Origin: an uncultured Erysipelotrichaceae bacterium
GTDB lineage: Bacteria > Bacillota_I > Bacilli_A > Erysipelotrichales > Erysipelotrichaceae
Length of the DNA stretch: 32,000 nucleotides
Direction: 5' to 3'
Assembly: GCA_942492995.1 (NCBI GenBank)
Contig: OW818653.1
Coordinates: 1,890,001 to 1,922,000, forward strand
Shown here: piece after piece, positions 2,464 to 32,000 of the stretch
Layout: each line of letters begins with the position of its first letter
Position numbering within the stretch: position 1 is the stretch's first letter
Position numbers and translations under genes: made by a program
Notes under the pieces: model-generated
Told to the model about the DNA's origin: nothing
The model's input: only the letters and a program-made list of their open reading frames with translations
Database searches by the model: none

Positions 2464-2496
2464 TTTTTTGTGCTTATATCACAAAGGAACAAGACG

Positions 2497-7923: not shown

Positions 7924-8201
7924 TAAAGAAAATTGTATTCGCATGTGATGCCGGAATGGGATCCAGCGCAATGGGAGCTACAACGTTAAGTAAGAAACTA
8001 AAAGCGGCTGGTTTAGACATTAAAGTTGTACATACAGCAATAGAAGACATACCAAGTGACGCACAATTAATCGTTACTCACACATCTCTTGCAAATCGTG
8101 CTCGTAAAGAACACCCTAATGTAGAAGTTGTCACCATCAATAGTTTTGTTGGCGCACCTGAATACGATCAACTTGTCAAACGACTCACAGAAGAAAAATA
8201 A
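7920..8201 (+). CDS. PTS mannitol-type EIIB component (free-standing)
   Basis: It has the phospho-cysteine loop [15 protein letters not shown]. The ATG overlaps the IIC stop (ATGA). Confidence 0.9.
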
Positions 8202-8208
8202 TAATACG

Positions 8209-8233
8209 AAGGGGTAGAAATACCCCTTTTTAT
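8209..8233 (+). terminator. Rho-independent terminator between the IIC-IIB genes and mtlR
   Basis: GGGGTA / TACCCC stem with a GAAA tetraloop and a T-run. Confidence 0.75.
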
Positions 8234-8309
8234 TTATGGCAACATATAATGTGTTCTATCTTAAATCATGTCACTATATAACTTTTAAAAAAGTGTTTAT
8301 AATGAAAGT

Positions 8310-13638: not shown

Positions 13639-13650
13639 AAGGGTAGGACA

Positions 13651-16292: not shown

Positions 16293-17164
16293 GTACGTTT
16301 ATCCAAATCTTACTAAGAAGTTTAGAGTCTGGTAGTGTTTATGCACTAGCAGCTTTAGGCATCATTATTATCTATCGTACGTCTAACATCACAAACTTCT
16401 CGCAAGGGGTAGTTGGTATGTTTAATACCTACGTAGTAACCTTCTTATTTATGAAAACGGGGGCTCCTTTGTGGTTGTGTATTTTGGGTGGTGTAGTTAG
16501 TGCGATACTAGTAGGATTAACGATCGACTTTCTGGTTATTCGACATACGAAGAAAGTTGCGCCAGTTGCTAAACAGATCATTACATTAGGATTAATCATG
16601 GTTATTATGGGAATCGCACCACTTTTATTCGGTGTTGATCCATTAAATCTACCAAAGTTAATTGGTGAAGGTAATTTAACTTTAGCCGGTGCGAATATTT
16701 CATACAATGGTTTATTTAATATCATATTTGGTTTAGTTCTTATGTTTGTTTTATTCTATACCTTACAAAAAACTAAAATTGGTCTTGCGGTTCGAACAAC
16801 CGCATCCAATGAATATACCGCTCGTTTAATGGGTGTTCCTACTAAAACCGTTACTTTAGGCGCATGGGCAGTTGCCGGTGTCCTAGGTGTTTTAGCGGGA
16901 GTTATGATAGCGCCTACGACAACAGTTACTTTAAATCTAATGGATGTTGTACAGATTAATGCCTTAGTCGCATGTGTTCTTGGTGGTTTTCAAACCTTCT
17001 ATGGACCGATTATTGGGGCTTATTTAATCGGTGTTAGTCGTAACTTATTAATCTATTATGTATCAAGTGTATGGGGTGGACAAATCCTTTACATCCTAAT
17101 ATTAATTTTCTTAATCTTTAGACCATACGGTTTAATTGGTAAGAAAACAGTGAAGAAAGTGTAG
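16274..17164 (+). CDS. HAAT-family (LivH-type) ABC transporter permease
   Basis: It is a polytopic membrane protein with LivH-like motifs (SGSVYALAALGIIIIYRTSNITNFSQG, GLAVRTTASNEYTARLMGV). An alternative GTG start at 16289 overlaps the upstream stop as GTGA. Confidence 0.88.
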   Translation: MGSGSVSTFIQILLRSLESGSVYALAALGIIIIYRTSNITNFSQGVVGMFNTYVVTFLFMKTGAPLWLCILGGVVSAILVGLTIDFLVIRHTKKVAPVAKQIITLGLIMVIMGIAPLLFGVDPLNLPKLIGEGNLTLAGANISYNGLFNIIFGLVLMFVLFYTLQKTKIGLAVRTTASNEYTARLMGVPTKTVTLGAWAVAGVLGVLAGVMIAPTTTVTLNLMDVVQINALVACVLGGFQTFYGPIIGAYLIGVSRNLLIYYVSSVWGGQILYILILIFLIFRPYGLIGKKTVKKV

Positions 17165-17171
17165 GTGTGAA

Positions 17172-18212
17172 ATGAGTAAATTTAACATTAAGACACCTTC
17201 ATTGAATGTCAAAAATTTAGTAAAGAATCCGTATTTACAATTTATCGTCTTCGGTTTATTGTTAAGTACTTTGCCGATCCTGGCCACCCAATTTTCCTTT
17301 ATTAAATCAGCGTATATCACAACCATCGGTGTCACTCTGATTTATGCCATAGCCGCCTTGGGCTTAAACCTCCTCCTTGGATGGTCAGGATTAATTTCAT
17401 TAGGTACAGCTGGGTTTATGGGTCTTGCGAGTTATATCTCAGCGTATCTAACTGTAGATATGGGACTTCCTTTCGAAGTCGCATTACTCGCCGCAATTCT
17501 AATTCCTACCTTAATCGGGGTATTAGTCGGATTAGTCTCACTCAAAATCGAAGGTCTTTATTTAGCGATTGCGACCTTGGCGGTTTCAGAAATTTTACGA
17601 AAGACCTTCGAAGAGTTTGACCAATTTACTGGTGCATTTAGTGGTAAATCTGCTAAGTTCCCCGTTCTATTCAATTCATTTCAGTTAGACCGTGCAACGA
17701 TGTATTACTTCATCGTATTCGTACTAATCATCATTATGTTAATTACATATAACTTAGTGAATGGACAAATGGGACGTGCACTTAATGCGATGCGTGGTTC
17801 AGAAGCTGCGGCACAAGCAATGGGTGTTAACCTATTGAAATATCGTTTAGTCGCATTTGCCTTAGCTACTATGTTCGCATCAGTATCCGGTGTTCTCTAT
17901 GTACACTTTATCCGATATTCCTATCCATCCTCATGGACACTTAAGTTGTCATTAGACTTCTTGGCCATGATTGTGATTGGTGGAGTACGTTCGATTTATG
18001 GAACAGTACTTGGCGCATTCATTGTATTTGCGGTTCCTGATTTGTTCCTAAAACAAATTCCGTATTTTAATCAATTGTCCTACACCTTAAATGGAATTCT
18101 AATTATCTTAGTCATTATGTTCTATCCAAATGGAATTATTATGATTTTCAAAGATATTAAGAATCTATTCAATAAGTTAATTAAGAAAGGAAATGGGAAT
18201 CATGCTAAGTGA
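17172..18212 (+). CDS. HAAT-family (LivM-type) ABC transporter permease
   Basis: LivM-like features: GLNLLLGWSGLISLGTAGFMGLASY, GRALNAMRGSEAAAQAMGVN. Confidence 0.88.
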   Translation: MSKFNIKTPSLNVKNLVKNPYLQFIVFGLLLSTLPILATQFSFIKSAYITTIGVTLIYAIAALGLNLLLGWSGLISLGTAGFMGLASYISAYLTVDMGLPFEVALLAAILIPTLIGVLVGLVSLKIEGLYLAIATLAVSEILRKTFEEFDQFTGAFSGKSAKFPVLFNSFQLDRATMYYFIVFVLIIIMLITYNLVNGQMGRALNAMRGSEAAAQAMGVNLLKYRLVAFALATMFASVSGVLYVHFIRYSYPSSWTLKLSLDFLAMIVIGGVRSIYGTVLGAFIVFAVPDLFLKQIPYFNQLSYTLNGILIILVIMFYPNGIIMIFKDIKNLFNKLIKKGNGNHAK

Positions 18213-19008
18213 AAATGAAGTTCTGAAGATAGAGAACTTATCCATTGCCTTCGGAGGATTAAAAGCAGTCGATAATCTTACATTTGAAATTAAGAAGAAT
18301 GAAATATTTGGTTTAATTGGACCGAATGGTGCAGGTAAAACAACGGTATTTAATTGTATTACCCAGTTCTATAAACCCAATGATGGAAAGATATTGTTTA
18401 GATTAAAAGATGGCAGTGAAACGAATTTAGTTGATCATAAAGTACATGAAATTATCAAACTTGGTTTAGTACGTACCTTCCAGAACGTTGAACTCATTCG
18501 TGAGTTAAGCATCTTAGATAACGTTATGATTGGGGCACATATCGACTTTAAAGCGAGCATTCTTGAACAAGCTCTAAGATTACCAAGAGCGCGTAAAGAA
18601 GAGAAGGCATTACGGTTAGAAGCAGAAGAAATATTAAAGCGTTTAGGGATATGGGATCGTAAAGATATGTTGGTCTTTGGACAACCATATGGGATTCTAA
18701 AGAAAGTTGAAATGGCACGTACCTTAATGTGTCGTCCAACTCTCATTATTCTAGATGAACCAGCAGCGGGGTTAAATGATGTGGAAACCATTCAACTAGC
18801 TCAATTAATACGTACCATTCGCGATGAATTTAATTGTTCAGTTCTATTAGTTGAACATGATATGCGCTTAGTTATGGATGTATGTGATCGTATTTGTGCT
18901 ATCTCGTTCGGTAAATTCTTAGCGAAGGATACAGCGAAAGAGATTCAGAAGAATAAATCGGTACAAGAAGCGTACCTAGGAAGTTCTGAGGAAATTCAAC
19001 ATGTCTAG
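18193..19008 (+). CDS. HAAT-family (LivG-type) ABC ATP-binding protein
   Basis: It has Walker A GPNGAGKTT, Walker B LIILDEPAAG and H-loop LVEHDM. The true start may be ATG 18202. Confidence 0.9.
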   Translation: MGIMLSENEVLKIENLSIAFGGLKAVDNLTFEIKKNEIFGLIGPNGAGKTTVFNCITQFYKPNDGKILFRLKDGSETNLVDHKVHEIIKLGLVRTFQNVELIRELSILDNVMIGAHIDFKASILEQALRLPRARKEEKALRLEAEEILKRLGIWDRKDMLVFGQPYGILKKVEMARTLMCRPTLIILDEPAAGLNDVETIQLAQLIRTIRDEFNCSVLLVEHDMRLVMDVCDRICAISFGKFLAKDTAKEIQKNKSVQEAYLGSSEEIQHV

Positions 19009-19720
19009 TACAGCACTCTTTATTAAAGGCTTAAAAGTTAGATATGGAGCGATTGAAGCACTTAAAGGCATTGATATGGAAGTTAAAGAAGGCGATGTCG
19101 TAGCGATATTGGGTGCGAATGGGGCTGGTAAAACGACCACATTACGTACAATATCAGGACTCATCGAACCAGCAGAAGGAAGCATTCTCTTCTACAATCA
19201 TGAGATTGGTAGGGAAGAACCTGAGAAGATTGCGGCACTTGGTTTATCACAATCACCAGAAGGAAGACAAGTATTTAGAGATTTAACCGTAGAAGAAAAC
19301 TTGAAAGTAGGTGCATTTACGGTAAGAGATAAAAAGATTATTAAAGAACAGTTTGAAAAAGTATATCGTTACTTTCCAGTTCTTAAGGAACGTAAAAACC
19401 AAATATCATCAACCTTATCCGGTGGTGAACAACAGATGTTAGCGATTGGACGAGCATTGATGAGTAATCCTAAAATATTACTCTTAGATGAACCATCCCT
19501 TGGTCTAGCACCATTAATCATTCGCGATATTATGAACATCGTTCTTGAGATTAAGAAATCAGGAACTACCGTAATCATTGTCGAACAGAATGCGGCACAA
19601 ACCTTAAAGATTGCGGATTATGCGTATGTGTTGGAGTTGGGTGAAATCAGTACTCATGGTCCAGCGAAAGACTTGCTTAACGATCCTAAGCTCATTGAAG
19701 CGTATCTTGGATCACATTAA
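19001..19720 (+). CDS. HAAT-family (LivF-type) ABC ATP-binding protein
   Basis: It has Walker A GANGAGKTT, the signature LSGGEQQMLAIGRAL, Walker B LLLDEPSLGLAP, and EQN. Confidence 0.9.
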   Translation: MSSTALFIKGLKVRYGAIEALKGIDMEVKEGDVVAILGANGAGKTTTLRTISGLIEPAEGSILFYNHEIGREEPEKIAALGLSQSPEGRQVFRDLTVEENLKVGAFTVRDKKIIKEQFEKVYRYFPVLKERKNQISSTLSGGEQQMLAIGRALMSNPKILLLDEPSLGLAPLIIRDIMNIVLEIKKSGTTVIIVEQNAAQTLKIADYAYVLELGEISTHGPAKDLLNDPKLIEAYLGSH

Positions 19721-19766
19721 TTTGGTATCAATGCGAAACGCATTATATAAACAAAAGGAGGAATAC

Positions 19767-20993
19767 ATGATGTTTAAGAAGTTGTTTATGGTTCTTACAG
19801 TTATGGCTCTAGCGACGACACTCGTTGCTTGTGCGCCAAAAGAAGAAGTAGTTGAAGAAGTCGCAGCTCAAGGGATTACAGACACTGAAGTGTTAATCGC
19901 TAACTGTGCAGCAACATCTGGTGCATTTGCGCCAGTTGGTACTCCGTTTATTGCAGGGATTGAAGCTTACTTAAAAACGGTCAATGATGCTGGTGGTATC
20001 GATGGACGTACAATTAAATTCTTACACCAAGACGATGAATTTGATCCTGCAAAGGGTAAAGCATGTTTAGCATCTATGGTTGAAGATGAAAAAGTCTTCG
20101 CTATCGTTGGTCACTTTGGTACTCCAGTTGTTGGGGCTACTTTAGAAGATCTTAAAGATTATGGTATTCCAGCTGTATACTTCGCTACAGGTATCGGTCA
20201 ACTTTATAATGATAAAGCTGAAGGTCGCGACCGTGGTATTATGCCTGTTCAACCAATTTATGTCACAGAAGGACAAATCATGGTTGCGCGTGCTGTTGGG
20301 GATTTCGGAGCTAAGACAATCGGTATTATCTATACAAATGATGATGCTGGTAAAGACATTTTAGCTGGTGCTCAAAAGAAAGCTGCTGAATTAGGTATTA
20401 CATTAGTTGAAGCTCAAGTTGCGCCTGGTACAGATGATGCGTCTGCAGCAGTTACAACAATTAAAGAAGCAAATGTAGATTTCATTATCGGTGGAGCAAT
20501 CCAAGCAACGATTCCTACAATCATTAAAGAATTAGCTGCTCAAGGTAATGACAAAGATTTAATCACAACATACGTTAACGTTGCGCCAGTTATTGCGGAA
20601 TCCGTAATGAATGAAATCGCTGGTAAATTTGATGTATACGGTAGTGGTTGGGTATCATTTGAAGGTGATGACCGTATGGCTGCACTTAATGAATTCGCAA
20701 CTGCTTTACCTGAATATTCTGCTAATGCATACGCTATGACTGGCTGGATTGCCGCAACATTCTTCGTAGAAGGTTTACGTCGTTTAGAAGGTGACAAGAT
20801 TGTTACTTGGGAAAACTACTTAGACGCTATGGAATCTGCACCAATCCAAAATCCATTTGGTGGTTTAATTGATTACACAAATGGTCTACGTGCTGGTACA
20901 CAAGAAATGAACTTATCCAAGATCAACCCTACAACTCCTACTAAATGGGAAGTTGTCGATGGTTTAAGATCAATGGATGATTTATTAAGCTAA
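19767..20993 (+). CDS. HAAT-family (LivJ-like, Peripla_BP_6) substrate-binding lipoprotein, ligand unknown
   Basis: An AAAGGAGG SD precedes ATGATG at 19767. The signal peptide with lipobox is MMFKKLFMVLTVMALATTLVAC. The body is type-I PBP-like (IDGRTIKFLHQDDEFDP..., VGHFGTPVV). The track start at 19611 lies inside livF and is an artefact. Confidence 0.85.
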   Translation: MMFKKLFMVLTVMALATTLVACAPKEEVVEEVAAQGITDTEVLIANCAATSGAFAPVGTPFIAGIEAYLKTVNDAGGIDGRTIKFLHQDDEFDPAKGKACLASMVEDEKVFAIVGHFGTPVVGATLEDLKDYGIPAVYFATGIGQLYNDKAEGRDRGIMPVQPIYVTEGQIMVARAVGDFGAKTIGIIYTNDDAGKDILAGAQKKAAELGITLVEAQVAPGTDDASAAVTTIKEANVDFIIGGAIQATIPTIIKELAAQGNDKDLITTYVNVAPVIAESVMNEIAGKFDVYGSGWVSFEGDDRMAALNEFATALPEYSANAYAMTGWIAATFFVEGLRRLEGDKIVTWENYLDAMESAPIQNPFGGLIDYTNGLRAGTQEMNLSKINPTTPTKWEVVDGLRSMDDLLS

Positions 20994-21016
20994 TAGGTTA
21001 CAATTAAATAGAACTG

Positions 21017-21042
21017 GTTGCGGAAGTTAAACCTTCCGCAAC
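21017..21042 (+). other. Strong intra-operon hairpin without a U-tract
   Basis: Perfect 10-bp stem GTTGCGGAAG / CTTCCGCAAC with a 6-nt loop, followed by ACCCTTTATGG, which is not a T-run. Confidence 0.6.
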
Positions 21043-21049
21043 ACCCTTT

Positions 21050-22369
21050 ATGGAGAAAACAATAATGGATATTTCAATCAAAAAGATTACTGCAAGTGAA
21101 GCTGTTAAAAAAGTAAAAAGTGGAATGATGATCGTTACAGGACTTGGATGTGCTGAAGGACGTGCGTTCTTAGGCGAATTACATACTGTTGCGGATGAAG
21201 TGAGTGGCGTTACAGTTACGAACTGTCTACCGATGTCAGATCCAGAGTTTATGAAGAAGGAATATAAAAATTCATTCTATGTGGATGGATGGTTCTATTC
21301 CCCAGCTTTACGTAAAGCACATCAAAATGGAAATATATCCTTTATCCCGAATCATTTACATCTTGCTGGGACAAAGCGTTTAGCGCATGTTCATACAGAT
21401 ATATATGTCGGTGCTTGTTCAATGCCTGATAAACACGGATATGTCTCATTATCCTTGAGTAATACGTATGAAAAACGTGTCATTGAAGAAGCAGATTTAG
21501 TTATATTAGAAATTAACCCACATATGCCATATACCTATGGTGATTTAGAATTGCATTTAGATGAAGTAGACTATGTAATTGAAGCAGATTATTATCCTGC
21601 AGAATTACCGGATGTCGAACCGAATGAACGAGATATTGCGATTGGGAATAATATTGCGAGCCAAATCAATGATGGAGATTGTATCCAATTAGGGATTGGT
21701 GGTATTCCAAATGCGGTCGCATCTGCACTAAAGAATAAACGTGATTTAGGGGTTCATACAGAGATGTTAACAACTGGTCTCATGAAACTCGCTAAAATGG
21801 GTGTTATTACAAACAAACGTAAAACATTACATAAAGGTAAGATGGTCTGTACTTTTGCGATGGGAAGTAAAGAACTCTATGAGTTTATTGATCATAATCC
21901 AGGTGTCGCAGTTCTTGATGGTGCGTATACCAATGATCCACATATTATTGGGTTAAACGATAATATGGTTTCAATTAATACAACCTTAGAAATTGATTTA
22001 ACTGGACAATGTTGTTCAGAGTCTATTGGTTCTACTCAATTTAGTGGAACAGGTGGACAAGTTGATACTGCAGTTGGGGCTCAAAATGCGAAGAACGGAA
22101 GATCGTTTATAGCGTTATATTCTACCGCAATGGTTAAGAATCCTGAAACTGGTGAACGTGTTGAAACATCTAAGATTGTCCCTCAATTAAAGCAAGGGGC
22201 TGTCGTAACCTTAAGTCGTAATGATGTGAATTATGTCGTGACTGAATATGGAATGGTTAATCTAAAGGGTACTAATGTACGTGAACGTGTGAAGTTGTTA
22301 ATCTCGATTGCACATCCTAAATTCAGAGATGAATTGCTTGAACAAGCTAAATCATTGGGAATCTTATAA
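21050..22369 (+). CDS. Acetyl-CoA hydrolase/transferase-family CoA-transferase (4-hydroxybutyrate / butyryl-CoA:acetate type)
   Basis: It has the family motifs GIGGIPNAV, HTEMLT and SGTGGQVD, and the expected length of about 435 aa. ATG 21065, with GGAG 9 nt upstream, is an alternative start. Confidence 0.85.
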   Translation: MEKTIMDISIKKITASEAVKKVKSGMMIVTGLGCAEGRAFLGELHTVADEVSGVTVTNCLPMSDPEFMKKEYKNSFYVDGWFYSPALRKAHQNGNISFIPNHLHLAGTKRLAHVHTDIYVGACSMPDKHGYVSLSLSNTYEKRVIEEADLVILEINPHMPYTYGDLELHLDEVDYVIEADYYPAELPDVEPNERDIAIGNNIASQINDGDCIQLGIGGIPNAVASALKNKRDLGVHTEMLTTGLMKLAKMGVITNKRKTLHKGKMVCTFAMGSKELYEFIDHNPGVAVLDGAYTNDPHIIGLNDNMVSINTTLEIDLTGQCCSESIGSTQFSGTGGQVDTAVGAQNAKNGRSFIALYSTAMVKNPETGERVETSKIVPQLKQGAVVTLSRNDVNYVVTEYGMVNLKGTNVRERVKLLISIAHPKFRDELLEQAKSLGIL

Positions 22370-23184
22370 TGGCTACTTTAGATTTTAAAGATTATTCAAT
22401 TTACTATGAAGTGTATGGCAAAGGTAAACCACTTGTTATGCTCAACGGAATTATGATGTCTACAGCGAGTTGGCAAATGTTTATTATGAACTTTAGTCAA
22501 TCCAATCAATTGATTCTTGTCGATATGTTAGATCAAGGTCAATCGTCTAAATTAGAAGGACAAATCTACACACAAGATATTCAAGTTGAAGTTGTTAAGA
22601 CGTTAATTGAAAAGTTAAACTTAAAAGAAGTTGCGTTATTTGGGATATCGTATGGTGGCGAAGTTGCGATTAAACTTGCGATTAAATACCCGCATTTAGT
22701 CGAAAGATGTTTACTCTTTAATACCACGAGTTATACCAATTCATGGTTAAAAGAAATTGGTAATGCGTGGAATCTTGCGAGTCCAAACGCTGAACAATAC
22801 TATGGCACAACTATCCCAGTAATTTATTCATCCGACTTTTATGAATCCAAGATTAAATGGATGACGCATCGTAAACAAATCCTTTTAAATGTATTCGCTA
22901 ATCCAGTGTTTCAACGTGCAATGGTACGCTTAACTAACAGCGCAAATTCATTGGATGAACGACATAATCTACATAAAATAAAATGCCCATGTTTGATCGT
23001 TGGATGTGATGAAGATGCGATTACACCTATTTCTCATCAACGGTATCTTCATGAAAACATTAAGTCTTCAAGTTTAGTTATTATTCCTGGTTCTGGGCAT
23101 GCGTCAATGTATGAGAAACCAATGTTATTTAGTTCACTTGTACTTGGATTTGTGCATTCGTTGATTATTCCAGATGTGGTATAA
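22369..23184 (+). CDS. Serine alpha/beta-hydrolase (second copy, different subfamily)
   Basis: It has the nucleophile elbow GISYGG and late Asp/His regions (VGCDEDAITP, GSGHASMYEKP). The start overlaps the upstream stop (TAATG). Confidence 0.8.
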   Translation: MATLDFKDYSIYYEVYGKGKPLVMLNGIMMSTASWQMFIMNFSQSNQLILVDMLDQGQSSKLEGQIYTQDIQVEVVKTLIEKLNLKEVALFGISYGGEVAIKLAIKYPHLVERCLLFNTTSYTNSWLKEIGNAWNLASPNAEQYYGTTIPVIYSSDFYESKIKWMTHRKQILLNVFANPVFQRAMVRLTNSANSLDERHNLHKIKCPCLIVGCDEDAITPISHQRYLHENIKSSSLVIIPGSGHASMYEKPMLFSSLVLGFVHSLIIPDVV

Positions 23185-24423: not shown

Positions 24424-25095
24424 ATGAATTTTATCTACTTTGGGACATTATTTGTCGTTGTTGGATTTAGTATAAATATTGGTGGAGGTCAAGTCGAGTT
24501 ATTTCCAGATGCGATTGGTTACTTTTTAATTCTAAAAGGTACACAAAGCTTATTAGAACTTCAACCAAATTTTAAGAAACTCCAACCACTTCTTTATTTC
24601 TTATTGGGGTATAATGCGTTAGTCTTTATCGATAAATTGTTTAACATTATCCCAAATAATGGCTATATTTACTTCGTGTTTGGATCAATCGCATTAGTGT
24701 TATATTTCTTAGTCTTCTATCGTTTATTCAAAGATTTCGATGGACTTAAAGTTAAACTAAGACGACCTGAAGAAGTAGATCGTTTGAATCGCTCATGGTT
24801 ACGATATACCTACGCGAGTATTATCTTCTTAGTGTTATCGGTGTTAGAAGCTATATACTTTATTACAACCTTAGGTTTTGCGGCTCTTCAAACCTTATTT
24901 ACCTATTTCCTTAACTACTCGACTACCCTTGAGGCTGCTGTTACAGAATTATTAAATAGTAATCAAATCGTTATAACAAGCGTATTTATTTATATCTTAA
25001 TTGCGATTGTAATTGTACTCACTATCTTGGTTTATCTCTTCAAAGTCATCTATTCATTGTATAAGATTAACAATGATTTCCGTACCGCTCAATAA
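24424..25095 (+). CDS. Hypothetical polytopic membrane protein
   Basis: It has about 6 hydrophobic segments and no recognisable motif. The start lies 1 nt after the maf stop. Confidence 0.6.
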   Translation: MNFIYFGTLFVVVGFSINIGGGQVELFPDAIGYFLILKGTQSLLELQPNFKKLQPLLYFLLGYNALVFIDKLFNIIPNNGYIYFVFGSIALVLYFLVFYRLFKDFDGLKVKLRRPEEVDRLNRSWLRYTYASIIFLVLSVLEAIYFITTLGFAALQTLFTYFLNYSTTLEAAVTELLNSNQIVITSVFIYILIAIVIVLTILVYLFKVIYSLYKINNDFRTAQ

Positions 25096-25107
25096 GCGGT
25101 ATTTTTA
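25083..25107 (+). terminator. Rho-independent terminator
   Basis: TACCGCT / AGCGGTA stem spanning the stop codon, followed by a T5 run. Confidence 0.65.
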
Positions 25108-25118
25108 TACTAAAAATC

Positions 25119-25147
25119 TTGCAATATTATTCTTTTTTCAGTATTAT
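25119..25147 (+). promoter_or_regulatory. Candidate promoter for the tRNA gene
   Basis: TTGCAA (25119-25124), a 17-nt spacer, then TATTAT (25142-25147), 13 nt before the mature tRNA 5' end. Confidence 0.5.
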
Positions 25148-25160
25148 AGAAAAGCATAAC

Positions 25161-25234
25161 GCCATCATAGTTCAATGGTAAAATAGAGCAATGGTAATGC
25201 TCAGCTCCGAGTTCGATTCTCGGTGATGGCACCA
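25161..25234 (+). tRNA. tRNA-Thr (anticodon GGU), CCA encoded
   Basis: Hand-folded. The acceptor stem is 7 bp (GCCATCA / TGATGGC). The anticodon stem is GAGCA / TGCTC with loop AUGGUAA, giving anticodon GGU. The T arm is CCGAG-TTCGATT-CTCGG. U8, the D-loop GG, U33 and purine 37 are present, as are G1:C72 and C2:G71. The total is 74 nt including CCA. The D stem is weak (3 bp including one G:U). Confidence 0.8.
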
Positions 25235-25294
25235 GTAAAAAAATAAACACTTTTAGTGAGTTTGTTTAGTTAAAAAGAATAGATATTTAGAAAA

Positions 25295-25330
25295 ACACAT
25301 AAGAGTTTAAAACTCAAATGTGTTTTTTTA
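25295..25330. terminator. Bidirectional terminator-like hairpin (serves the tRNA on + and the ROK kinase gene on -)
   Basis: ACACAT-AA-GAGT-loop-ACTC-AA-ATGTGT, flanked by A5 upstream and T7 downstream. Confidence 0.65.
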
Positions 25331-25421
25331 TGACAAAACTTGAAGTTGTAGAAATACTTTGTTCTAATGAGTATGTTTCTTCAGTAAACGTATAAAAATT
25401 CACTAGATCTGTATTTGTCTA

Positions 25422-26321
25422 TTAATCATTGGCGCTATTGATATGATGATATAGCGCTCCGATTAAGTTACTATCATTACCAAACATGCATGGTACGATA
25501 TTCATCCTTTTTTGAGGTGTCCAATTAAGTTTTTCAAAGAGTAAATCTGTTCTTTTATTAATCGTGTCAATTAGAACAGTTTGAGCAGATATACCACCAC
25601 CAATCGCTATGGTTTCGGTATCTAGAATTGTTTGTATTGTATAGATGCCTAATGCAAAACTATCTGCAAACTCATCGAGAATTTTAATTGCGGAACTATT
25701 TTTGTTGTTAATCGCATCAAAAAACACTTTTCCATTAACATCCACAAGGTTTAAATTGTTAACCTCTGCATATTTCGTAATAAGCTCACCCGTAGAATTA
25801 ACCATAGCCCATATTTTGAATGGATTAGCATGAGCGTCTAAACTAGTTGGTAAGAAAGAAACTTCACCAGATGTGAAATTATGACCACGATGGACTTTAC
25901 CATCAATCACGATTCCACCTCCTATTCCCGTCCCAATTGTTAATACCATTCCACATTTTACATTCTTAAGTGCGCCTTTCCAAACTTCCGCATTTGCGGC
26001 GCATTTCGCGTCATTATCAATCGTTATCGTTACAGGAATATATTTCTTTAATAAATCTACCATTGGGCAATCTTTAATGTACGTAAGTGCGCCACCTGTA
26101 TACATATAACCTGTCTTGGCATCAATTCTACCTGGAGCACTTATTGCAATCCCATCAATATCTTCATGTTTCTTATATAAATCAACAATAGTATTTATAA
26201 ACTCTTCAAGACTAGATTTAGGTGTAGCGATTTCTCCCTTGCTAAGTATTTCTGCATTTTCATTCATTTTAGTGTACTTTATGGAAGTACCGCCAACATC
26301 AATTACGAGATATTTTTTCAT
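25422..26321 (-). CDS. ROK-family sugar kinase (BglK-like, lacks the zinc-cysteine motif)
   Basis: It has the N-terminal ATP motif VIDVGGTSIKY and the ROK glycine-rich signature LTIGTGIGGGIVIDGKVHRG. No CxCGxxGC motif is present. Confidence 0.85.
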   Translation of the reverse strand: MKKYLVIDVGGTSIKYTKMNENAEILSKGEIATPKSSLEEFINTIVDLYKKHEDIDGIAISAPGRIDAKTGYMYTGGALTYIKDCPMVDLLKKYIPVTITIDNDAKCAANAEVWKGALKNVKCGMVLTIGTGIGGGIVIDGKVHRGHNFTSGEVSFLPTSLDAHANPFKIWAMVNSTGELITKYAEVNNLNLVDVNGKVFFDAINNKNSSAIKILDEFADSFALGIYTIQTILDTETIAIGGGISAQTVLIDTINKRTDLLFEKLNWTPQKRMNIVPCMFGNDSNLIGALYHHINSAND

Positions 26322-26357
26322 AAAATAACTTTATCATATTTTAATCCGTTTCGTATA

Positions 26358-26386
26358 TTGACAATTTTGAACCTCGTGACTATATT
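26358..26386 (+). promoter_or_regulatory. Candidate promoter for the esterase gene (and possibly the two-component genes)
   Basis: TTGACA (26358-26363), a 17-nt spacer, then TATATT (26381-26386). Confidence 0.45.
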
Positions 26387-26459
26387 TATGTAGAATATAT
26401 GTGAAAATTAGATAATAATAGTGCATATTTTAATAAAAAACTATAAAGGAGCTATAATT

Positions 26460-27344
26460 ATGTTAAGTAAAGAAATAAAAATGTTTATCGAAATGCTTGC
26501 ACGGGATAAAGAGGCAAATCGTGGGAATAAATTTACGGCTGAATCTGCAATTGCGACAAGAAAATCAATTGATGAGAAGATTGGTGGTTATACAGATTCA
26601 TTAGTGGAAATTGAAATGATAAAGAATCAACTCACATCTGGCGAGTTTTACCATTTTAAAGGGAATAAAAATCCTGATAATATTATTTTGTTTATTCATG
26701 GCGGAGGTTTTGCGGTAGGAAGTGTTGAATCTAGACGTAAAATGTTTATGGACATCCTAAAAGAGAGCAAAATGGATGCTTATTCTGTTGATTATGGTCA
26801 ATGGCCAGAAGCTAAACATCCTCAAGGGTTGAACGATTCTATTAATGCATATAAATATCTATTAGAACAAGGATATAAAGCTGAGAATATTTGTTTGTTT
26901 GGTGAGTCAGCTGGTGCTATGCTTGCTTTAACCACAACGTTATATTTAAAGGATAATGGTTTTGCTTTACCGGCTAAGATTAGTGTATTCTCACCAGTTG
27001 CTGGTCAAGAAATCGATTTACCTTCTCATACACTTAGAGATAAACGAGATCCAATGATAATCTTCGAAGAAGTTGTGCCATATTATGTTGGATCTGATTT
27101 CAGCTCCCCATATGTTTCTCCAATATTTGGTGATTACAAAGGATTTCCACCACTCTTTATTCATGTAGGAACAGAAGAAGTATTATATGATGATGCGATT
27201 GAAATTTATAAAAAATGTGTTGAAGCAGGTGTAACTGTAACGCTAAGGGAATGGGAAGGTTTATTCCATGTTTTCCCACTTTTCCCATCACCTGAATCTG
27301 TTATGGCTGTTAAGGAAATTGCAAACTACTTTTCAACAAAATAA
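26460..27344 (+). CDS. Family IV (hormone-sensitive-lipase-like) esterase/lipase
   Basis: It has the HGGGF oxyanion motif and the GESAGA nucleophile elbow. An AAGGAG SD lies 8 nt before ATG 26460, which is an internal Met of the track ORF. Confidence 0.85.
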   Translation: MLSKEIKMFIEMLARDKEANRGNKFTAESAIATRKSIDEKIGGYTDSLVEIEMIKNQLTSGEFYHFKGNKNPDNIILFIHGGGFAVGSVESRRKMFMDILKESKMDAYSVDYGQWPEAKHPQGLNDSINAYKYLLEQGYKAENICLFGESAGAMLALTTTLYLKDNGFALPAKISVFSPVAGQEIDLPSHTLRDKRDPMIIFEEVVPYYVGSDFSSPYVSPIFGDYKGFPPLFIHVGTEEVLYDDAIEIYKKCVEAGVTVTLREWEGLFHVFPLFPSPESVMAVKEIANYFSTK

Positions 27345-27392
27345 TAGAAAATTAAATATTCGAATTAATATCGTCGAATTGCGAGGTAAATA

Positions 27393-29000
27393 ATGTCATA
27401 TCAATTTAAGTGCATCATTGCTGAAGATGAAAGAAGGATGGCGGATCTAGTTCTTTTACTTGGACATTGGGATGAATACAAAATTGATATTTTAGATGTT
27501 TGCTATAACGGTATTGATGCTCTAGACAGTATCATCAAAAACAAACCTGATCTAGTTATTACTGATATTAAAATGCCGGGTTATGATGGTCTTGCATTAA
27601 TACAAAAATGCCGGGAATATCAAATCGATTGTGCTTTTATTATTGTAAGTGGTTATAAACATTTTGAATATGCCAAAAGCGCAATGCAAAATGGTGTAGT
27701 CGACTATATTTTAAAACCAATTGATGAGGAACAATTGAATATTGCAATTGGAAAAGCCATCAAAATTATTAATGAAAAAAATACAACAGGAATTATAAAA
27801 ACTGAACGAGATGAATATTTCAATAAATATCAAAATATTAAATACAGCGACTTTTGGAGACAACTATTTTCAAGTGCTTTTAACGATAAAGTATTCAATT
27901 ATGAAAAATATGTTGAGTTACTGCCACCAGAAAAATTACACTGGGTCTATCGAATAATATTTGTTAGGACGACGATTGATAATATACTTGATGAAAATAC
28001 ACTATTCAGAGAAAAGCTTAATTCAATATTAAACAATATTGAAACAGATAGATTAAGCCTTCTTTATCAATATAGTAAAGAAGGAATCTTTATACTTTTA
28101 AATTATGAAAATGACTTGGATCTAAATATTAATCAAGTTATTTCAAGTGTTTACTATAAACTTAGTAACTTGACAGAAATTTTCGATGATTTTGATTTGG
28201 CGTTTGGTTATAGTAGAAAAATAAATAGTATTTCTGATTTAGGTAAAATCATGAAAGAAGCAATTGCTGCTGAAACTTCAAAACTTATCTATGGGATGAA
28301 TAAGATTATTTCATTTGAGATGATTCAAAACTTACCAAGATTTTCTCCAGAATCGATATTAACGGATGATTTGATAAATAACTTGAAAAATGCATATGAA
28401 TACCTAAAGATTAGCGATATATATGATTTACACCAAGAATTATTAAATAAGTGTGAAAAATATCAAGGTTTTAATCCTTGGGATATGATCAAGATGCAAC
28501 AATATTTATTGGAAGTTACATTATCGTTATTTATCAATAATGTCGAGGAACTTGAGAGTAAACGTATCGAAACTTGGTGGTTTGCTAGCCAATCTTATCG
28601 ATTTGTAGATTTTATTAGTTTAACTTTAAAATCAATCGAGAAATATTTTGAGGAATATTTACTTCAACAGAAACAAATTCATATTCTGCCTACCGAAAAA
28701 GCTATAAACTATATCGAGGGTCATTATGCTGAATCAATTACACTAGAAGAGATATCTGAATATGTTGGCCTATCTCCAAATTATTTCTCAAAAGTTTTTA
28801 AGAATGAAATGGGTAAAGGTTATTCTGATTTTTTAATTGAATATCGAATAGAGAAATCAAAAAAACTTTTAGCTGAAACAACTGAATCTGTAAAATCAAT
28901 TTCTGTTAGTGTTGGTTATCCAGATCAAAAGTATTTTTCAAAACTTTTTAGAAAAATTACAGGAATTAAGCCCTCAGAATACAGAAAGTTGTATTCGTAA
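27393..29000 (+). CDS. YesN-type response regulator (REC + AraC-family HTH)
   Basis: The receiver has the acidic pocket (AEDE), the phospho-Asp region LVITDIKMPGYDG, and LKP. The C-terminus carries a dual AraC HTH (LEEISEYVGLSPNYFSKVFK...SVGYPDQKYFSKLFRKITGIKPSEYRK). Confidence 0.9.
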   Translation: MSYQFKCIIAEDERRMADLVLLLGHWDEYKIDILDVCYNGIDALDSIIKNKPDLVITDIKMPGYDGLALIQKCREYQIDCAFIIVSGYKHFEYAKSAMQNGVVDYILKPIDEEQLNIAIGKAIKIINEKNTTGIIKTERDEYFNKYQNIKYSDFWRQLFSSAFNDKVFNYEKYVELLPPEKLHWVYRIIFVRTTIDNILDENTLFREKLNSILNNIETDRLSLLYQYSKEGIFILLNYENDLDLNINQVISSVYYKLSNLTEIFDDFDLAFGYSRKINSISDLGKIMKEAIAAETSKLIYGMNKIISFEMIQNLPRFSPESILTDDLINNLKNAYEYLKISDIYDLHQELLNKCEKYQGFNPWDMIKMQQYLLEVTLSLFINNVEELESKRIETWWFASQSYRFVDFISLTLKSIEKYFEEYLLQQKQIHILPTEKAINYIEGHYAESITLEEISEYVGLSPNYFSKVFKNEMGKGYSDFLIEYRIEKSKKLLAETTESVKSISVSVGYPDQKYFSKLFRKITGIKPSEYRKLYS

Positions 29001-29005
29001 TTGAT

Positions 29006-29782
29006 ATGAAACTAAAAAACATTTTTAAAGTCTTTGAAAGTACATCAAAATCTGAGGAAGATTTTAATAAAGTTAAAAGTATAAGCTTATCCGAAAATAC
29101 GTGGGAAATAGAATACAAATTACTTCAAAGCCAGATAAATCCACATTTTTTATACAATACACTTGACTCAATCCGAAGTGAAGCTTTGAAACATAACGAA
29201 AATGAAATTGCGAGTATGATTGAGAGATTATCGCGGTTTTTTAGATACAGTATAAGTAGTACTGGGAACTTCGTTAAAATTTCTGAAGAATTAAACCACA
29301 TAAATGATTACTACTACATTCAGAAATTCAGATTTGAAGAAAGACTTGAGATGGTTATCAAGATTGATAGTGAAGAACTAAAGGAATGCTATATTCCTAA
29401 AATGACGCTTCAACCACTTATTGAGAACGCCATTACTCATGGGCTTGAAAAGAAATTAAACCCAGGACTAATTACGATTCATATATTTGGAACAAAAAAG
29501 AAAGTATATATTCAAATTGAAGATAATGGGGTTGGTATTGAATCTGAATTACTTAAAAAAATAAATGATAAGCTAATTTCTTCTGATCTAAAATTCGATC
29601 GAATATCAAAAAATAGTGGAATTGCATTATTAAATGTAAACGCGCGTTTAAAGATGTTTTTTGGTAAAACTTATGGAATAAAAGTTAGAAGTTTGGTAAA
29701 TGTTGGGACAACAATGGAAATCATTGTTCCACGAGTATCGGACAATGAATTAGCTGAATATGACTTCAGGTTAAAATTATAA
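29006..29782 (+). CDS. YesM/LytS-type histidine kinase catalytic core only (His_kinase + HATPase_c, no transmembrane, HAMP or sensor region)
   Basis: The H-box LLQSQINPHFLYNTLDSI begins at about residue 40. It also has the N-box LIENAITHG, G1 EDNGVGI and G2 SGIALLNV. The protein is 258 aa with no hydrophobic segment. It starts 5 nt after the response-regulator stop. Confidence 0.85.
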   Translation: MKLKNIFKVFESTSKSEEDFNKVKSISLSENTWEIEYKLLQSQINPHFLYNTLDSIRSEALKHNENEIASMIERLSRFFRYSISSTGNFVKISEELNHINDYYYIQKFRFEERLEMVIKIDSEELKECYIPKMTLQPLIENAITHGLEKKLNPGLITIHIFGTKKKVYIQIEDNGVGIESELLKKINDKLISSDLKFDRISKNSGIALLNVNARLKMFFGKTYGIKVRSLVNVGTTMEIIVPRVSDNELAEYDFRLKL

Positions 29783-31068
29783 TGCTAAAACAAGAATATT
29801 TATGGCTAAGAAATATTGATGTCAGTAATGCACACCATGAGCAACTGTTAAACTATGATTTATCTATTTTTGAAGGGGAAATTATTTGTATAACAAGTTC
29901 TACTTTTTCAAAGAGAAAGCTCGTTTCAAACTTAATTTTAGGGTATCTAAAACCAGAAAATGGCAGTATTTTTTTAAACGAGAAATTATGTAAAAACTAT
30001 AATGCTCAATTTGCTTTCTCACATGGTATATCTAGTTCTGAATCAACCGGTAGTTTAGTAAAAACAATGAAGATTGAACATAATTTATTCGCATTACGTG
30101 AACGAAATAATCCATTAAGTATTTTTAATGAAAAAGCTGCACAAATACAAACTCAAAAAATATTGAATTCTTTAGGTTTATTTGATTATAAAAATAAATT
30201 AATACAGGATTTATCGGTATATGAGCAACAGATCGTATGTCTTGCAAAATCTGTTATTAATAATGCAAAAATTATTGTAGTCAATGATACATCTATGAAT
30301 TCTTATGAAGAGAAGATGCAATTGATAAAAAACATAAAAACCTATTCTAAACAAGGAGTTAGTTTCATAATTATCTGTGATGAGAATGATGAGTCTATTT
30401 ATCATGCTAATCGTATTCAATATATTTCAGATTCAAACCAAATTTTTGAATTTGAAGAAGTTAAACAATTTCTAGTTTTCTTAGATGATCAGAACTCATC
30501 GCTAATGAATAAAAATATCTCACAAAGAAATAGTTCTCTTGATTTTTTAGTTCCAAATAGTATGGATGCTTTTAGATATGATGACGCAATTTTAGATATG
30601 TGGTTATCTAAAAGGCAAGCGTATGAAATAACAGGAAATATAGATCGATATTTTATACCAAATTTTTCAATTAAAGAGAATATTTGCTTAGGCATTTATT
30701 CTAAACTTACTACTTGGAGTATTTTAAACGAAAATCTTATCGATTTTACTTTTCTTGAAGCCAAACGGTTTGCGAATATTACTAACTCATCAATTAGTAT
30801 AGATAAGTTGACTCATTTACAAAAATTACTTTTACTCATTTATCGTGTTTCATTACAAAATCATAAATTTATCATTTTAAACGACATCTTTAATGAAATG
30901 GATGATTATGAATGGAGCCATCTTATTAGAACTTTGGAAGATTTGGTTGAAAAAAGAACAGTAATCTATTTTAAAAACTGTAATAGTCATTATTTCCGAA
31001 TAAAGTCATCCAATTTTTATCAACTTGACCGCAAGAAAGCAATAATGATAAAAAAAGACACCTTTTGA
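29782..31068 (+). CDS. Degenerate (predicted catalytically inactive) tandem-NBD CUT2 sugar-ABC ATPase homologue (RbsA/MglA-like)
   Basis: It is collinear with RbsA-type ATPases. LSVYEQQIVCLAKSVINNAKIIVVNDTS aligns with LS-x-QQMVEIAK-x-L-x-IIMDEPT. Walker A is replaced by ITSSTFSKRKL, Walker B DE by ND, and H-loop SH by CD. The second half keeps LTHLQKLLLLIYRV...FIILNDIFNEMD, but no Walker A is visible. The ATG overlaps the kinase stop (TAATG). Confidence 0.7.
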   Translation: MLKQEYLWLRNIDVSNAHHEQLLNYDLSIFEGEIICITSSTFSKRKLVSNLILGYLKPENGSIFLNEKLCKNYNAQFAFSHGISSSESTGSLVKTMKIEHNLFALRERNNPLSIFNEKAAQIQTQKILNSLGLFDYKNKLIQDLSVYEQQIVCLAKSVINNAKIIVVNDTSMNSYEEKMQLIKNIKTYSKQGVSFIIICDENDESIYHANRIQYISDSNQIFEFEEVKQFLVFLDDQNSSLMNKNISQRNSSLDFLVPNSMDAFRYDDAILDMWLSKRQAYEITGNIDRYFIPNFSIKENICLGIYSKLTTWSILNENLIDFTFLEAKRFANITNSSISIDKLTHLQKLLLLIYRVSLQNHKFIILNDIFNEMDDYEWSHLIRTLEDLVEKRTVIYFKNCNSHYFRIKSSNFYQLDRKKAIMIKKDTF

Positions 31069-31081
31069 TAGAAATGGTTCA

Positions 31082-31111
31082 TTGTTTGCGATTAATCGAG
31101 AATACTATAAT
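31082..31111 (+). promoter_or_regulatory. Candidate promoter for the sugar-binding protein gene
   Basis: TTGTTT (31082-31087), an 18-nt spacer, then TATAAT (31106-31111), upstream of the AGGAGGAAAG SD. Confidence 0.4.
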
Positions 31112-31146
31112 TTGGCCATAAAGTTATCTGACTTTAGGAGGAAAGA

Positions 31147-32000
31147 ATGAAGAATTTACTTAAATTAGTATTTGTTGTTGCTATGAGTATTGGTATGTTG
31201 ACAGCTTGCAGTTCAAATAATGCTCCTGTAGCTGAAGAAGGTAGTGGTATTTTTGGTGTAAGTATTATGACTTTAGGCGCAGAATTCTTTACTGGATTAC
31301 AATCATCCATGGAAAAAGTTTTCGGTGAAGAAGGATTTGAAGTTGTAACGGTTTCCGCTGAATTGGATGTTGCAAAACAGGTTTCAGATATAGAAAATTT
31401 GGTAACTCAAGAAGCAGAAGGTATTCTAGTTGGACCAATGGATCCAAACAGTTTACAAGATGCATGTATCGCAGCACGTGAAGCTGGAACAAAAATTATT
31501 ACATTTGTACCATTCGAAGATCCTGAAGCATACGATGTTTTAATTGGTATTGATGAATCTCAATTGGGCTTAGCTGCAGCTGAATTAGCCTCTGAATGGG
31601 TAGACCAAAAATTTGCAGAAAATGAAAATGCTAGTGTGACAACGATCTTGATCACATATCCTACAAACCCAAATGCTGTATTACGCGATGAAGGGTTAAT
31701 GACAATTGCTAATAATTTAAAAGTTAATCTTGTAAAGAATTACGAACTAGGTGCTGCAGATTCTGTGGATCGCGTTCAAGAGTTTATGGAAATTGCTTTA
31801 GCTGAATATCCTAATCTTAACTTAATCTTAGTACATGATGCATCATTTGCGATTGCTGCAAATGAAGTGTTAGCTAGAACTAGTGGAGTTGATGCTTCAA
31901 AAGTTGGTATCTTTGCGATCGGTGCATCTGAAGCTACTGTAAATGCAGTTGCTGATTCAAAAACCGATGCTTCTATGATCCGTGGTTTAGTTGCTTTAGA
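31147..32000 (+). CDS. CUT2-type (RbsB-like, type-I PBP) sugar ABC substrate-binding lipoprotein, 3' end outside the window
   Basis: It is absent from the ORF track because no stop lies in the window. My hand translation is open from ATG 31147 to nt 32000. The SD is AGGAGG. The signal peptide with lipobox is MKNLLKLVFVVAMSIGMLTAC. The body reads FGVSIMTLGAEFFTGLQSSMEK...VAKQVSDIENLVTQEAEGILVGPMDP, typical of ribose/galactose-type binding proteins. Confidence 0.8.
   Translation, partial: MKNLLKLVFVVAMSIGMLTACSSNNAPVAEEGSGIFGVSIMTLGAEFFTGLQSSMEKVFGEEGFEVVTVSAELDVAKQVSDIENLVTQEAEGILVGPMDPNSLQDACIAAREAGTKIITFVPFEDPEAYDVLIGIDESQLGLAAAELASEWVDQKFAENENASVTTILITYPTNPNAVLRDEGLMTIANNLKVNLVKNYELGAADSVDRVQEFMEIALAEYPNLNLILVHDASFAIAANEVLARTSGVDASKVGIFAIGASEATVNAVADSKTDASMIRGLVAL

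Follow-up and report, generated by a model that had tools for sequence, protein, structure and literature searches.

A degenerate CUT2 ATPase homologue paired with a sensor-less PF06580 kinase: a candidate transporter-coupled sugar-sensing module in gut Firmicutes

Known transporter-linked sensors and the locus under study

In the three-component systems XylFII-LytS-YesN of Clostridium beijerinckii, AraPST of Geobacillus and CuaDSR of Ruminiclostridium cellulolyticum, a duplicated binding protein serves as the sensor (PMC8050422, PMC10384115). Here we analyze a locus at positions 27393-32000 of a 32,000-nt stretch from an uncultured Erysipelotrichaceae bacterium (contig OW818653.1; the whole stretch is called the window, and coordinates are counted within it), in which a response regulator, a histidine kinase devoid of a sensor domain and a degenerate homologue of an ATP-binding cassette (ABC) transporter ATPase, hereafter the pseudo-ATPase, are encoded by a translationally coupled unit directly upstream of a CUT2 transporter. 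This trio of regulator, sensor-less kinase and dead ATPase is a conserved module in gut Firmicutes, and on balance we favor, with moderate confidence, the view that it forms part of a four-component sensing device in which the pseudo-ATPase would sit on a CUT2 permease and relay the sugar state to the kinase. With the three systems named above it shares a PF06580 kinase, a regulator with a receiver (REC) and an AraC-type domain, an adjacent sugar ABC transporter operon as the apparent target, and the logic of dedicating a duplicated transporter component to sensing. In the XylFII-LytS-YesN type the extracellular binding protein binds the periplasmic four-helix domain of the kinase; the window system, in contrast, has neither a periplasmic kinase domain nor a second binding protein, and its duplicated component is a cytoplasmic ATPase homologue that appears dead. 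Taking the window together with its identical or closest related loci (L001, L002 and L003), no dedicated, non-transport paralogue of the binding protein lies by the kinase, and the locus has a single binding-protein gene.

Sensor-less kinases are also a feature of the Bce-type modules (BceRS-BceAB), whose kinase depends on the adjoining ABC transporter, the latter being both sensor and target (PMC3023708, PMC7828314). Most kinases related to that of the window resemble BceS in having two membrane helices without an extracellular loop; a similar dependence on the transporter may apply to them, while the window kinase has no predicted membrane helix at all. The window system also departs from the Bce type in its CUT2 importer (BPD_transp_2) with a binding protein, its extra dead ATPase, its PF06580 kinase and its AraC-type regulator. 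Bce modules have an active ATPase, BceA, and a permease of the MacB/FtsX type whose extracellular domain is large; their kinase is of the HisKA and their regulator of the OmpR type, and they sense antimicrobial peptides via transport flux. In MalK-MalT and PstSCAB-PhoU-PhoR it is the cytoplasmic face of the importer that reports transport state to a regulator or kinase, MalK and PstB being working ATPases that signal themselves, with or without an adaptor (PhoU); to our knowledge, neither system has a dedicated pseudo-ATPase paralogue. The module described here would resemble them in its readout at the cytoplasmic face and differs from them in having such a paralogue. A preliminary description of the window knew of no account of this particular architecture, and this agrees with our full-text searches of the literature, which did not reach subscription-only papers and returned no account of a pseudo-ATPase partnered with a PF06580 kinase; the closest published systems are the three-component sensors built on substrate-binding proteins and the Bce-type modules.

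The pseudo-ATPase, its partners and their conservation

The pseudo-ATPase gene (29782-31068, plus strand) encodes a 428-aa homologue of the tandem CUT2 ATPases, in which the first nucleotide-binding domain (NBD1) is complete and the second (NBD2) lacks its P-loop subdomain. Pfam gives a single weak ABC_tran match (35.8 bits), and the best NCBIfam models are those of the CUT2 ATPases AraG, GguA, YtfR, AlsA and RbsA, reached at 48-65 bits against cut-offs of about 690-850. In an alignment with the real CUT2 ATPases of the same loci, Walker A of NBD1 reads SSTFSKRK in place of GENGAGKST, the Q-loop Gln is lost, the signature is LSVYEQQ instead of LSTAQQQ, Walker B is VVNDTS instead of IMDEPS, and the SH of the H-loop is replaced by CD. 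In NBD2, about 48 aligned columns comprising the P-loop part are deleted, and the signature and Walker B, both intact in the real enzymes, read LTHLQK and ILNDIF. The catalytic motif set of CUT2 ATPases (Walker A, Q-loop, LSGGQ, Walker B Glu and H-loop) is absent from both halves, and on these grounds the protein is predicted to be catalytically dead. It shares clear homology, tandem layout and NBD fold with RbsA, MglA, AraG and XylG; unlike them it has lost the catalytic motifs and the NBD2 P-loop subdomain and belongs to a separate lineage. An AlphaFold2 model (mean predicted local distance difference test score, pLDDT, of 77) shows an NBD fold at residues 1-235, complete and with a pLDDT of 80-92; residues 239-269 form a disordered linker, and residues 270-400 a partial NBD from which the P-loop subdomain is missing. 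The best Foldseek matches to this model were isolated ABC NBDs (E about 1e-15), and a sequence search of the PDB together with Foldseek returned generic NBDs only, with neither a closer solved relative nor a CUT2 tandem ATPase complex among them.

Degeneration extends to distant pseudo-ATPases: those from the seven contexts taken from the kinase matches (see below) all lack the signature, the NBD2 P-loop and the Asp-Glu pair of Walker B, while a few distant members, such as that of locus L008 (GPHASGKS), have an NBD1 Walker A. Four ATPase-like proteins (L027 7372-8805, L040 1771-2856, L039 793-2355 on the minus strand, and L086 13146-14642) score between the pseudo and the real profiles, and keep Walker A while lacking the Walker B Asp-Glu pair. 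They may be forms that bind nucleotide without hydrolyzing it, or transitional forms; the L086 protein, encoded between two permease genes, is probably a real ATPase.

Immediately upstream, and overlapping the pseudo-ATPase gene by 1 nt (TAATG), lies the kinase gene (29006-29782, plus strand, 258 aa), which encodes only a PF06580 dimerization and histidine phosphotransfer domain (His_kinase, E 5e-28) and HATPase_c (E 3e-10), the catalytic core that marks YesM-type kinases. About 43 hydrophilic residues precede the H-box (NPHF) and no membrane helix is predicted; the canonical input apparatus, two transmembrane (TM) helices flanking an extracellular domain followed by HAMP, is absent, canonical relatives having 290-420 residues and two TM helices. 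Since the H-box His47, the N-box E140/N141, the G1 box D173xGxG and the G2 box G205 are invariant in an alignment with 16 relatives (A7), the kinase appears catalytically intact and should be active. The short form is common: a search gave 2723 kinase homologues at E ≤1e-10, and the best 120 of these 2723 are all short (222-344 aa), the few with a source name coming from Lachnospiraceae or Eubacterium. The preliminary description had taken the kinase for a soluble protein, which holds for the window (0 TM helices) and fails as a general rule, as most relatives keep 1-3 membrane helices without an extracellular domain. Kinases without any membrane helix are found in the Erysipelotrichaceae-type clade, to which the window belongs, and in a high-GC clade (L036, L041, L043). 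A comparison of N-terminal peptides (window 29006-29050, L002, L003, L004, L005, L008, L010, L011, L015, L036, L041 and L043) revealed that these membrane-less kinases all start with a short basic/aromatic peptide (MKLKNIFKVF, MWFKRKRE, MLWKRKKQ, MWLKTQWKLRRALRRYRR), which may be a juxtamembrane remnant, an amphipathic membrane anchor or a partner-binding peptide.

The first gene of the unit (27393-29000, plus strand) is separated from the kinase gene by a 5-nt spacer (TAA ttgat ATG) and encodes a 535-aa YesN-type regulator composed of a REC domain (Response_reg 8-118, E 2e-19, 70 bits), a middle region of about 300 aa, and a C-terminal AraC-type helix-turn-helix domain (HTH_AraC/HTH_18 455-532, 75-80 bits); both the acidic pocket IIAEDE and the acceptor Asp, within ITDIKMP, can be read from the sequence. 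The open reading frames (ORFs) and their two junctions, as well as the assignment of the products to a REC-AraC regulator, a minimal YesM-type kinase core and an inactive ABC-ATPase homologue from Pfam and NCBIfam profiles and the motif alignment, bear out what had been proposed. In nearly all related loci the regulator gene lies 5' of the kinase gene. Its 5' end contains an 18-nt run, ATCATTGCTGAAGATGAA (27414-27431, coding for IIAEDE), which is invariant at the DNA level in the five loci with the closest pseudo-ATPases and is the sole run of this kind in the gene; a constraint on translation initiation or a regulatory function could account for it. Alignment of the regions 5' of the regulator gene among relatives revealed no conserved motif. 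The best sigma-70-like site of the region (26358-26386, TTGACA-17-TATATT, 11/12) precedes an Abhydrolase_3 esterase gene (26421-27344) that stops 48 nt before the regulator gene, for which reason the regulatory genes may be co-transcribed with it; an esterase gene also precedes the regulator in L002 and L003. A ROK-family gene is divergent at 25422-26321.

Full-length homologues of the pseudo-ATPase numbered only five in a word-indexed search of 5.8 billion proteins (100, 68, 63, 41 and 40% identity), the next matches being real ATPases that cover half of the query. The five close loci share the order regulator, short kinase, pseudo-ATPase, binding protein, ATPase, permease. The nine independent loci first examined had the same gene order; several loci from metagenomes have the real ATPase and permease ahead of the binding protein. 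Seven contexts taken at different ranks of the kinase matches again displayed the same architecture, with an ABC_tran protein of 396-498 aa, carrying a single match, 3' of the kinase. A scan of GTDB genomes with the five-member alignment, from which the derived patterns were too specific, returned one locus, the Erysipelotrichaceae metagenome-assembled genome (MAG) already found. A search of 1.84 billion cluster representatives with a hidden Markov model (HMM) of the pseudo-ATPase gave 29 matches at E ≤1e-30, followed by a continuum into real ATPases. When 148 of the best 150 representatives (P0144-P0291; clusters at 50% identity) were scored with pseudo and real HMMs derived from the loci, 79 were classed as pseudo, 51 as real and 18 as ambiguous. 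Intact pseudo-ATPase ORFs are present in at least 35 loci, at 20-68% identity. The trio, in which a short PF06580 kinase co-occurs with a degenerate tandem-NBD protein, is conserved both among the five close homologues and in distant Firmicutes; a lack of conservation would have spoken against the proposal. The arrangement recurs at every related locus examined and is far beyond chance.

The association was then set against kinases that retain a sensor. A metagenome scan with the kinase alignment yielded 80 loci with short as well as canonical long kinases, and the contrast was scored on 81 kinase loci from metagenomes and genomes, in which ORFs were called, neighbors were classed by phmmer and HMMs, and the stretch ahead of the H-box was measured for length and hydrophobicity. 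A pseudo-ATPase was counted as adjoining if its start lay -26 to +50 nt from the kinase stop. Short kinases, with fewer than 170 residues ahead of the H-box, 0-3 TM helices and no extracellular domain, were adjoined by a pseudo-ATPase in 30 of 35 cases. Long kinases, with 240 or more residues there, two TM helices, an extracellular domain and HAMP, were so adjoined in none of 46 (Fisher's exact test, p = 2e-17, the loci being counted without phylogenetic correction). The five short-kinase exceptions are artefacts: two, which are start-codon overlaps, do have a pseudo-ATPase, a third is a long kinase with a frameshift, and the remaining two are truncated at contig edges. Instead, behind many long kinases lies an additional binding-protein gene, as in the known three-component layout (L045-L048, L066, L070), and none of the loci examined combines a pseudo-ATPase with an extracellular sensor domain. 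These data strongly back the earlier proposal that an ATPase-like protein stands in for the absent membrane sensor.

The contrast also bears on the idea that the pseudo-ATPase is a transport throttle, i.e. a dominant-negative competitor of the real ATPase, with the kinase sensing something else. In favor of this idea, the protein is a dead relative of the type of ATPase that the transporter uses, and its gene lies beside the transporter genes. Against it, the pseudo-ATPase is linked to the kinase (within the -26 to +50 nt interval in 30 loci), it is absent from the 46 loci in which the same kind of transporter accompanies a sensor-bearing kinase, and the kinase has no other input domain. We consider a throttle very unlikely.

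Loss of all catalytic motifs, the presence of only five close homologues among 5.8 billion proteins and a rate of change above that of the real ATPase could also be taken to mean that the gene is a functionless relic of a decaying ATPase duplicate, next to a truncated kinase pseudogene. Between L003 and L002, identity is 64% for the pseudo-ATPase, 72% for the regulator and 78% for the kinase, as compared with 89% for the real ATPase, 91% for the binding protein and 94% for the permease, so that in its rate of change the pseudo-ATPase is close to the regulator, and the real ATPase and the permease change much more slowly. Against decay stand the intact ORFs in those 35 or more loci and a clear signature of constraint. 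In the five close loci the proportion of synonymous differences (pS) is saturated at 0.7-0.9, that of nonsynonymous differences (pN) in the pseudo-ATPase is far below it at 0.13-0.39, and the ratio of the corresponding rates (dN/dS) is ≤0.12 where computable, all of which indicates purifying selection; 124 columns are invariant among the five proteins. Some conserved residues, e.g. E5, L105 and P370-F371, are specific to the pseudo family, and the kinase has all of its catalytic boxes. Moreover, in a neighbor-joining tree 35 pseudo-ATPases (the window protein, three high-GC members outside the HMM training set, the N-terminal halves of the fusion proteins described below, and others) split from 39 real CUT2 ATPases, cognate neighbors included, in 50 of 50 bootstraps, a figure that excludes the L086 protein, placed among the pseudo set by the Walker B regular expression; with it the split is recovered in 6 of 30. 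Intact kinase boxes, purifying selection and a separate, monophyletic and old clade led us to reject the relic as an extremely unlikely explanation, and by these measures the pseudo-ATPase is a functional, old and fast-evolving lineage.

Probable contact with the permease and possible routes of signaling

The preliminary description had suggested that the pseudo-ATPase docks on the permease of the adjacent transporter and couples it to the kinase. Support for this suggestion comes from five proteins of 805-812 aa (P0209 and P0292-P0295) in which a pseudo-ATPase is fused to a BPD_transp_2 permease. P0209 (811 aa; Walker A GLNDSGIG) scores 343 with the pseudo and 213 with the real HMM, and the other four are 47-55% identical to it. 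In both contexts that were read (L095 8001-10436 and L096 8001-10436), the fusion gene lies between the gene for a kinase of 335-338 aa and a complete binding protein-ATPase-permease set. The combination of tandem pseudo-NBDs with one membrane domain implies that the fusion would pair with a second, free permease subunit. An AlphaFold2 model of one fusion contains two NBD-like domains and a membrane domain with about ten helices, and has about 34 residues of disordered linker. At L029, a separate extra permease gene (302 aa) follows the pseudo-ATPase gene (2701-4089) and precedes the normal binding protein-ATPase-permease genes, and is apparently the unfused version of a dedicated sensor permease.

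Residue conservation points in the same direction. In ABC importers, the region just past the Q-loop lines the groove that receives the coupling helix of the permease. The most conserved columns of the pseudo family include N101, F103 and L105, just past the NBD1 Q-loop, and N300 at the equivalent place in NBD2, N101 and N300 being invariant in the real ATPases as well; the portion of NBD2 kept by the window protein is this helical post-Q-loop region. Because of the fusions, the extra permease and the retention of the conserved post-Q-loop region in NBD2, docking on a CUT2 permease is favored, and on these Rosetta-stone and conservation arguments the pseudo-ATPase probably does dock there; the docking and the signaling are our reading of these data.

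The loci can be arranged as a series of forms: L095, L096 and L029 have a dedicated permease, fused or separate, together with a membrane-anchored kinase; most loci (L012, L014, L016-L035) have only the pseudo-ATPase and a kinase with 1-3 membrane helices; and in the clade of the window the pseudo-ATPase is further shortened and the kinase is membrane-less. It is for this reduced clade that a purely cytoplasmic mode of sensing is most plausible, in which the pseudo-ATPase, alone or with the kinase, would be a soluble receptor that responds to a signal inside the cell, for instance imported rhamnose, an intermediate of the pathway or a nucleotide, and would control the kinase while leaving the permease untouched, the transporter mattering only as importer of the inducer. 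Such a mode fits a kinase that has no membrane helix, a pseudo-ATPase that has lost part of NBD2 and the lack of a dedicated permease in the contexts of L002-L005, and the few distant members that keep Walker A, like that of L008, might bind nucleotide. It accords poorly with the members of the same pseudo-ATPase clade that are fused to or paired with a permease, with the membrane-anchored kinases of most relatives, which have no ligand domain, and with the nature of the retained NBD2 part, which contains no new domain; we also know of no sugar-binding site or regulatory domain in CUT2 NBDs. Overall, we regard cytoplasmic sensing as unlikely.

If, as we favor, the pseudo-ATPase works on the permease, the following sequence of events can be envisaged. 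The pseudo-ATPase would occupy the NBD docking site beneath the CUT2 permease dimer in place of the real ATPase and thereby create a non-transporting receptor copy; in the organism of the window this would be the permease of the adjacent transporter, since there is no dedicated copy. Docking of the sugar-loaded binding protein from outside would make the coupling helices of the permease shift both pseudo-NBDs, and the kinase bound to the pseudo-ATPase would switch towards autophosphorylation. The phosphorylated regulator would then activate the binding-protein promoter, which has a weak -35 element, and with it the transporter and rhamnose genes. Read-through from the regulatory genes may provide the sensor with the basal amounts of binding protein and permease that it requires, because no terminator was found between the pseudo-ATPase and binding-protein genes in a generic promoter/terminator scan of 25000-32000.

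The same permease-contact evidence would suit a partner switch reminiscent of MalK-MalT, in which the pseudo-ATPase holds the soluble kinase in an inactive or phosphatase state until sugar-loaded binding protein engages the permease, whereupon the pseudo-ATPase is drawn to the permease or reshaped on it and frees the kinase. A soluble kinase with a basic/aromatic N-terminal peptide lends itself to reversible binding, and tight 1:1 translational coupling fits a stoichiometric inhibitor. Release and diffusion make less sense for the membrane-anchored kinases of most relatives, and the sequences do not tell activation from relief of inhibition; to us a switch of this kind seems quite unlikely.

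Several points weigh against the permease-based relay that we prefer. The evidence for any protein-protein contact is indirect; the model of the fusion (predicted template modelling score, pTM, 0.59) confirms the domain order and leaves the packing unsupported, and the post-Q-loop Asn residues may be conserved for the stability of the fold and not for contact with the permease. The contrast of 30 with 0 cases carries no correction for phylogeny, short and long kinases being separate clades, and long-branch attraction could inflate the separation of the pseudo-ATPases as a clade of their own. The clade of the window is the most reduced, having lost the kinase anchor and the NBD2 P-loop subdomain and having no dedicated permease, and could have shifted to a purely cytoplasmic mode. 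If the pseudo-ATPase docks at the site that the real ATPase occupies, the two must compete. Finally, the assignment of rhamnose as the sugar, set out below, draws on relatives 63-80% identical, as both the window and L001 stop before the catabolic genes.

Whether these loci represent a widespread, unrecognized class of sugar receptors in gut, rumen and fermenter Firmicutes, in which a dead tandem-NBD protein turns a CUT2 permease into a transmembrane receptor, is in our judgement evenly balanced. In such a class the permease would be borrowed from the adjacent transporter, dedicated or fused, the mechanics of an importer would be reused as an ATP-independent relay, and the window would hold the most reduced form, with a fully soluble kinase. 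Its members would now be annotated as 'sugar ABC transporter ATP-binding proteins', and the sole family member with a source name (P0296) is indeed labelled as a normal ATPase subunit of a sugar ABC transporter. A dedicated pseudo-enzyme copy of a transporter's motor subunit would be a new input route for two-component systems; it would explain many 'sensor-less' PF06580 kinases, the best 120 of 2723 homologues being all short, and at least about 80 clusters (50% identity) of degenerate 'ATP-binding proteins' mis-annotated as transport subunits. It would further offer a tractable natural system for the ATP-free cytoplasmic readout of conformational change in the membrane domain of an importer, compact sugar-responsive switches for the engineering of anaerobes, and better reconstruction of regulons for dietary-fibre and rhamnose use in the gut microbiota.

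The adjoining transporter, its promoter and other genes of the window

The authentic ATPase and permease had been expected beyond the end of the window, and the first of them was found on a public contig, L001, which matches window 29519-32000 without a mismatch (2482 nt) and extends 686 nt beyond it. After the binding-protein gene, L001 carries the start of a canonical CUT2 ATPase with Walker A GENGAGKST and, at the contig end, the Walker B region ILIMD. In the closest relatives, L002 (Erysipelotrichaceae MAG OY781039.1) and L003, a tandem ATPase of 492-496 aa and a BPD_transp_2 permease of 327 aa lie downstream, so that the lack of a transporter, which would have spoken against the proposal, is not what was found. 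Further on, both loci encode a GH78-type rhamnosidase (Bac_rhamnosid6H), an FGGY kinase, RhaA and a class II aldolase, and the sugar enzymes of L002 exceed the curated NCBIfam cut-offs for rhamnulokinase (rhaB), L-rhamnose isomerase (rhaA) and rhamnulose-1-phosphate aldolase (rhaD). Because L002 and L003 carry the rhamnosidase and the rhaB, rhaA and rhaD genes beside the transporter, the sugar is probably L-rhamnose or rhamnosides, as judged from synteny, and the region would be the regulatory half of a locus for the uptake and breakdown of a sugar, most likely L-rhamnose or rhamnosides.

The 5' part of the gene for the CUT2 substrate-binding lipoprotein (lipobox LTAC) occupies 31147-32000 on the plus strand and continues past the window; on L001 the full protein has 322 aa and matches Pfam Peripla_BP_4. 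Of its earlier designation as a ribose/galactose-type CUT2 binding protein, the assignment to CUT2 and the lipoprotein nature stand, while the synteny of the relatives points to L-rhamnose or rhamnosides instead of ribose or galactose. The promoter-like site ascribed to this gene was also found to be conserved: a perfect -10 hexamer, TATAAT (31106-31111, plus strand), is kept in register as TATAAT or TACAAT in four relatives (L002-L005), although the -35 element, TTGTTT (31083-31088, 17-nt spacer), is poor, as expected for an activator-dependent promoter. A ribosome-binding site, AGGAGG, lies at 31136-31141. The generic scan of 25000-32000 gave 34 promoter-like matches, fewer than the 41 in shuffles, and is uninformative in this respect; it missed the binding-protein promoter because of the poor -35 element.

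The pseudo-ATPase gene contains at its 3' end, 44-61 nt 5' of the -10 hexamer, an 18-nt block, ATGATAAAAAAAGACACC (31045-31062, plus strand, coding for MIKKDT), that is identical in the five close loci, even though their proteins share only 40-68% identity and their synonymous sites are saturated elsewhere. As the block is invariant at the DNA level, in comparison with only 14% of the degenerate codons for invariant amino acids across the whole gene, it is a candidate regulatory site, either an activator site or an UP element of the binding-protein promoter. The motif TGATARAAA occurs in three copies within 61 bp (31014-31074; one inverted, two direct with 20-nt spacing), also 5' of this promoter. 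As an operator it was rejected and is kept as a weak lead, there being 5 copies window-wide against 2.8 expected, which is not significant, and a single copy kept in relatives.

An Rfam scan detected a tRNA gene at 25161-25231 as the only match and no riboswitch near the locus. The remainder of the window contains several genes of other kinds. A mannitol-type phosphotransferase system operon (EIIC, a PRD/Mga regulator with EIIA, EIIB-EIIA and mannitol-1-phosphate dehydrogenase) spans 6868-12279. It is followed at 12433-23184 by genes for a thiolase, a short-chain dehydrogenase, an alpha/beta hydrolase, a KAS III-like enzyme, a CoA transferase and another hydrolase, together with a Liv-type ABC transporter (two permeases, two ATPases and Peripla_BP_6) and then a TetR regulator; this pairing of acyl-CoA-type enzymes with a branched-chain-type importer is unusual. 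At 2470-4977, an 835-aa fusion of pyridine-nucleotide disulfide oxidoreductase, rhodanese, TusA and DsrE-like domains looks like a sulfur-trafficking protein of the CoA-disulfide/persulfide reductase type, unrelated to the sensing module.

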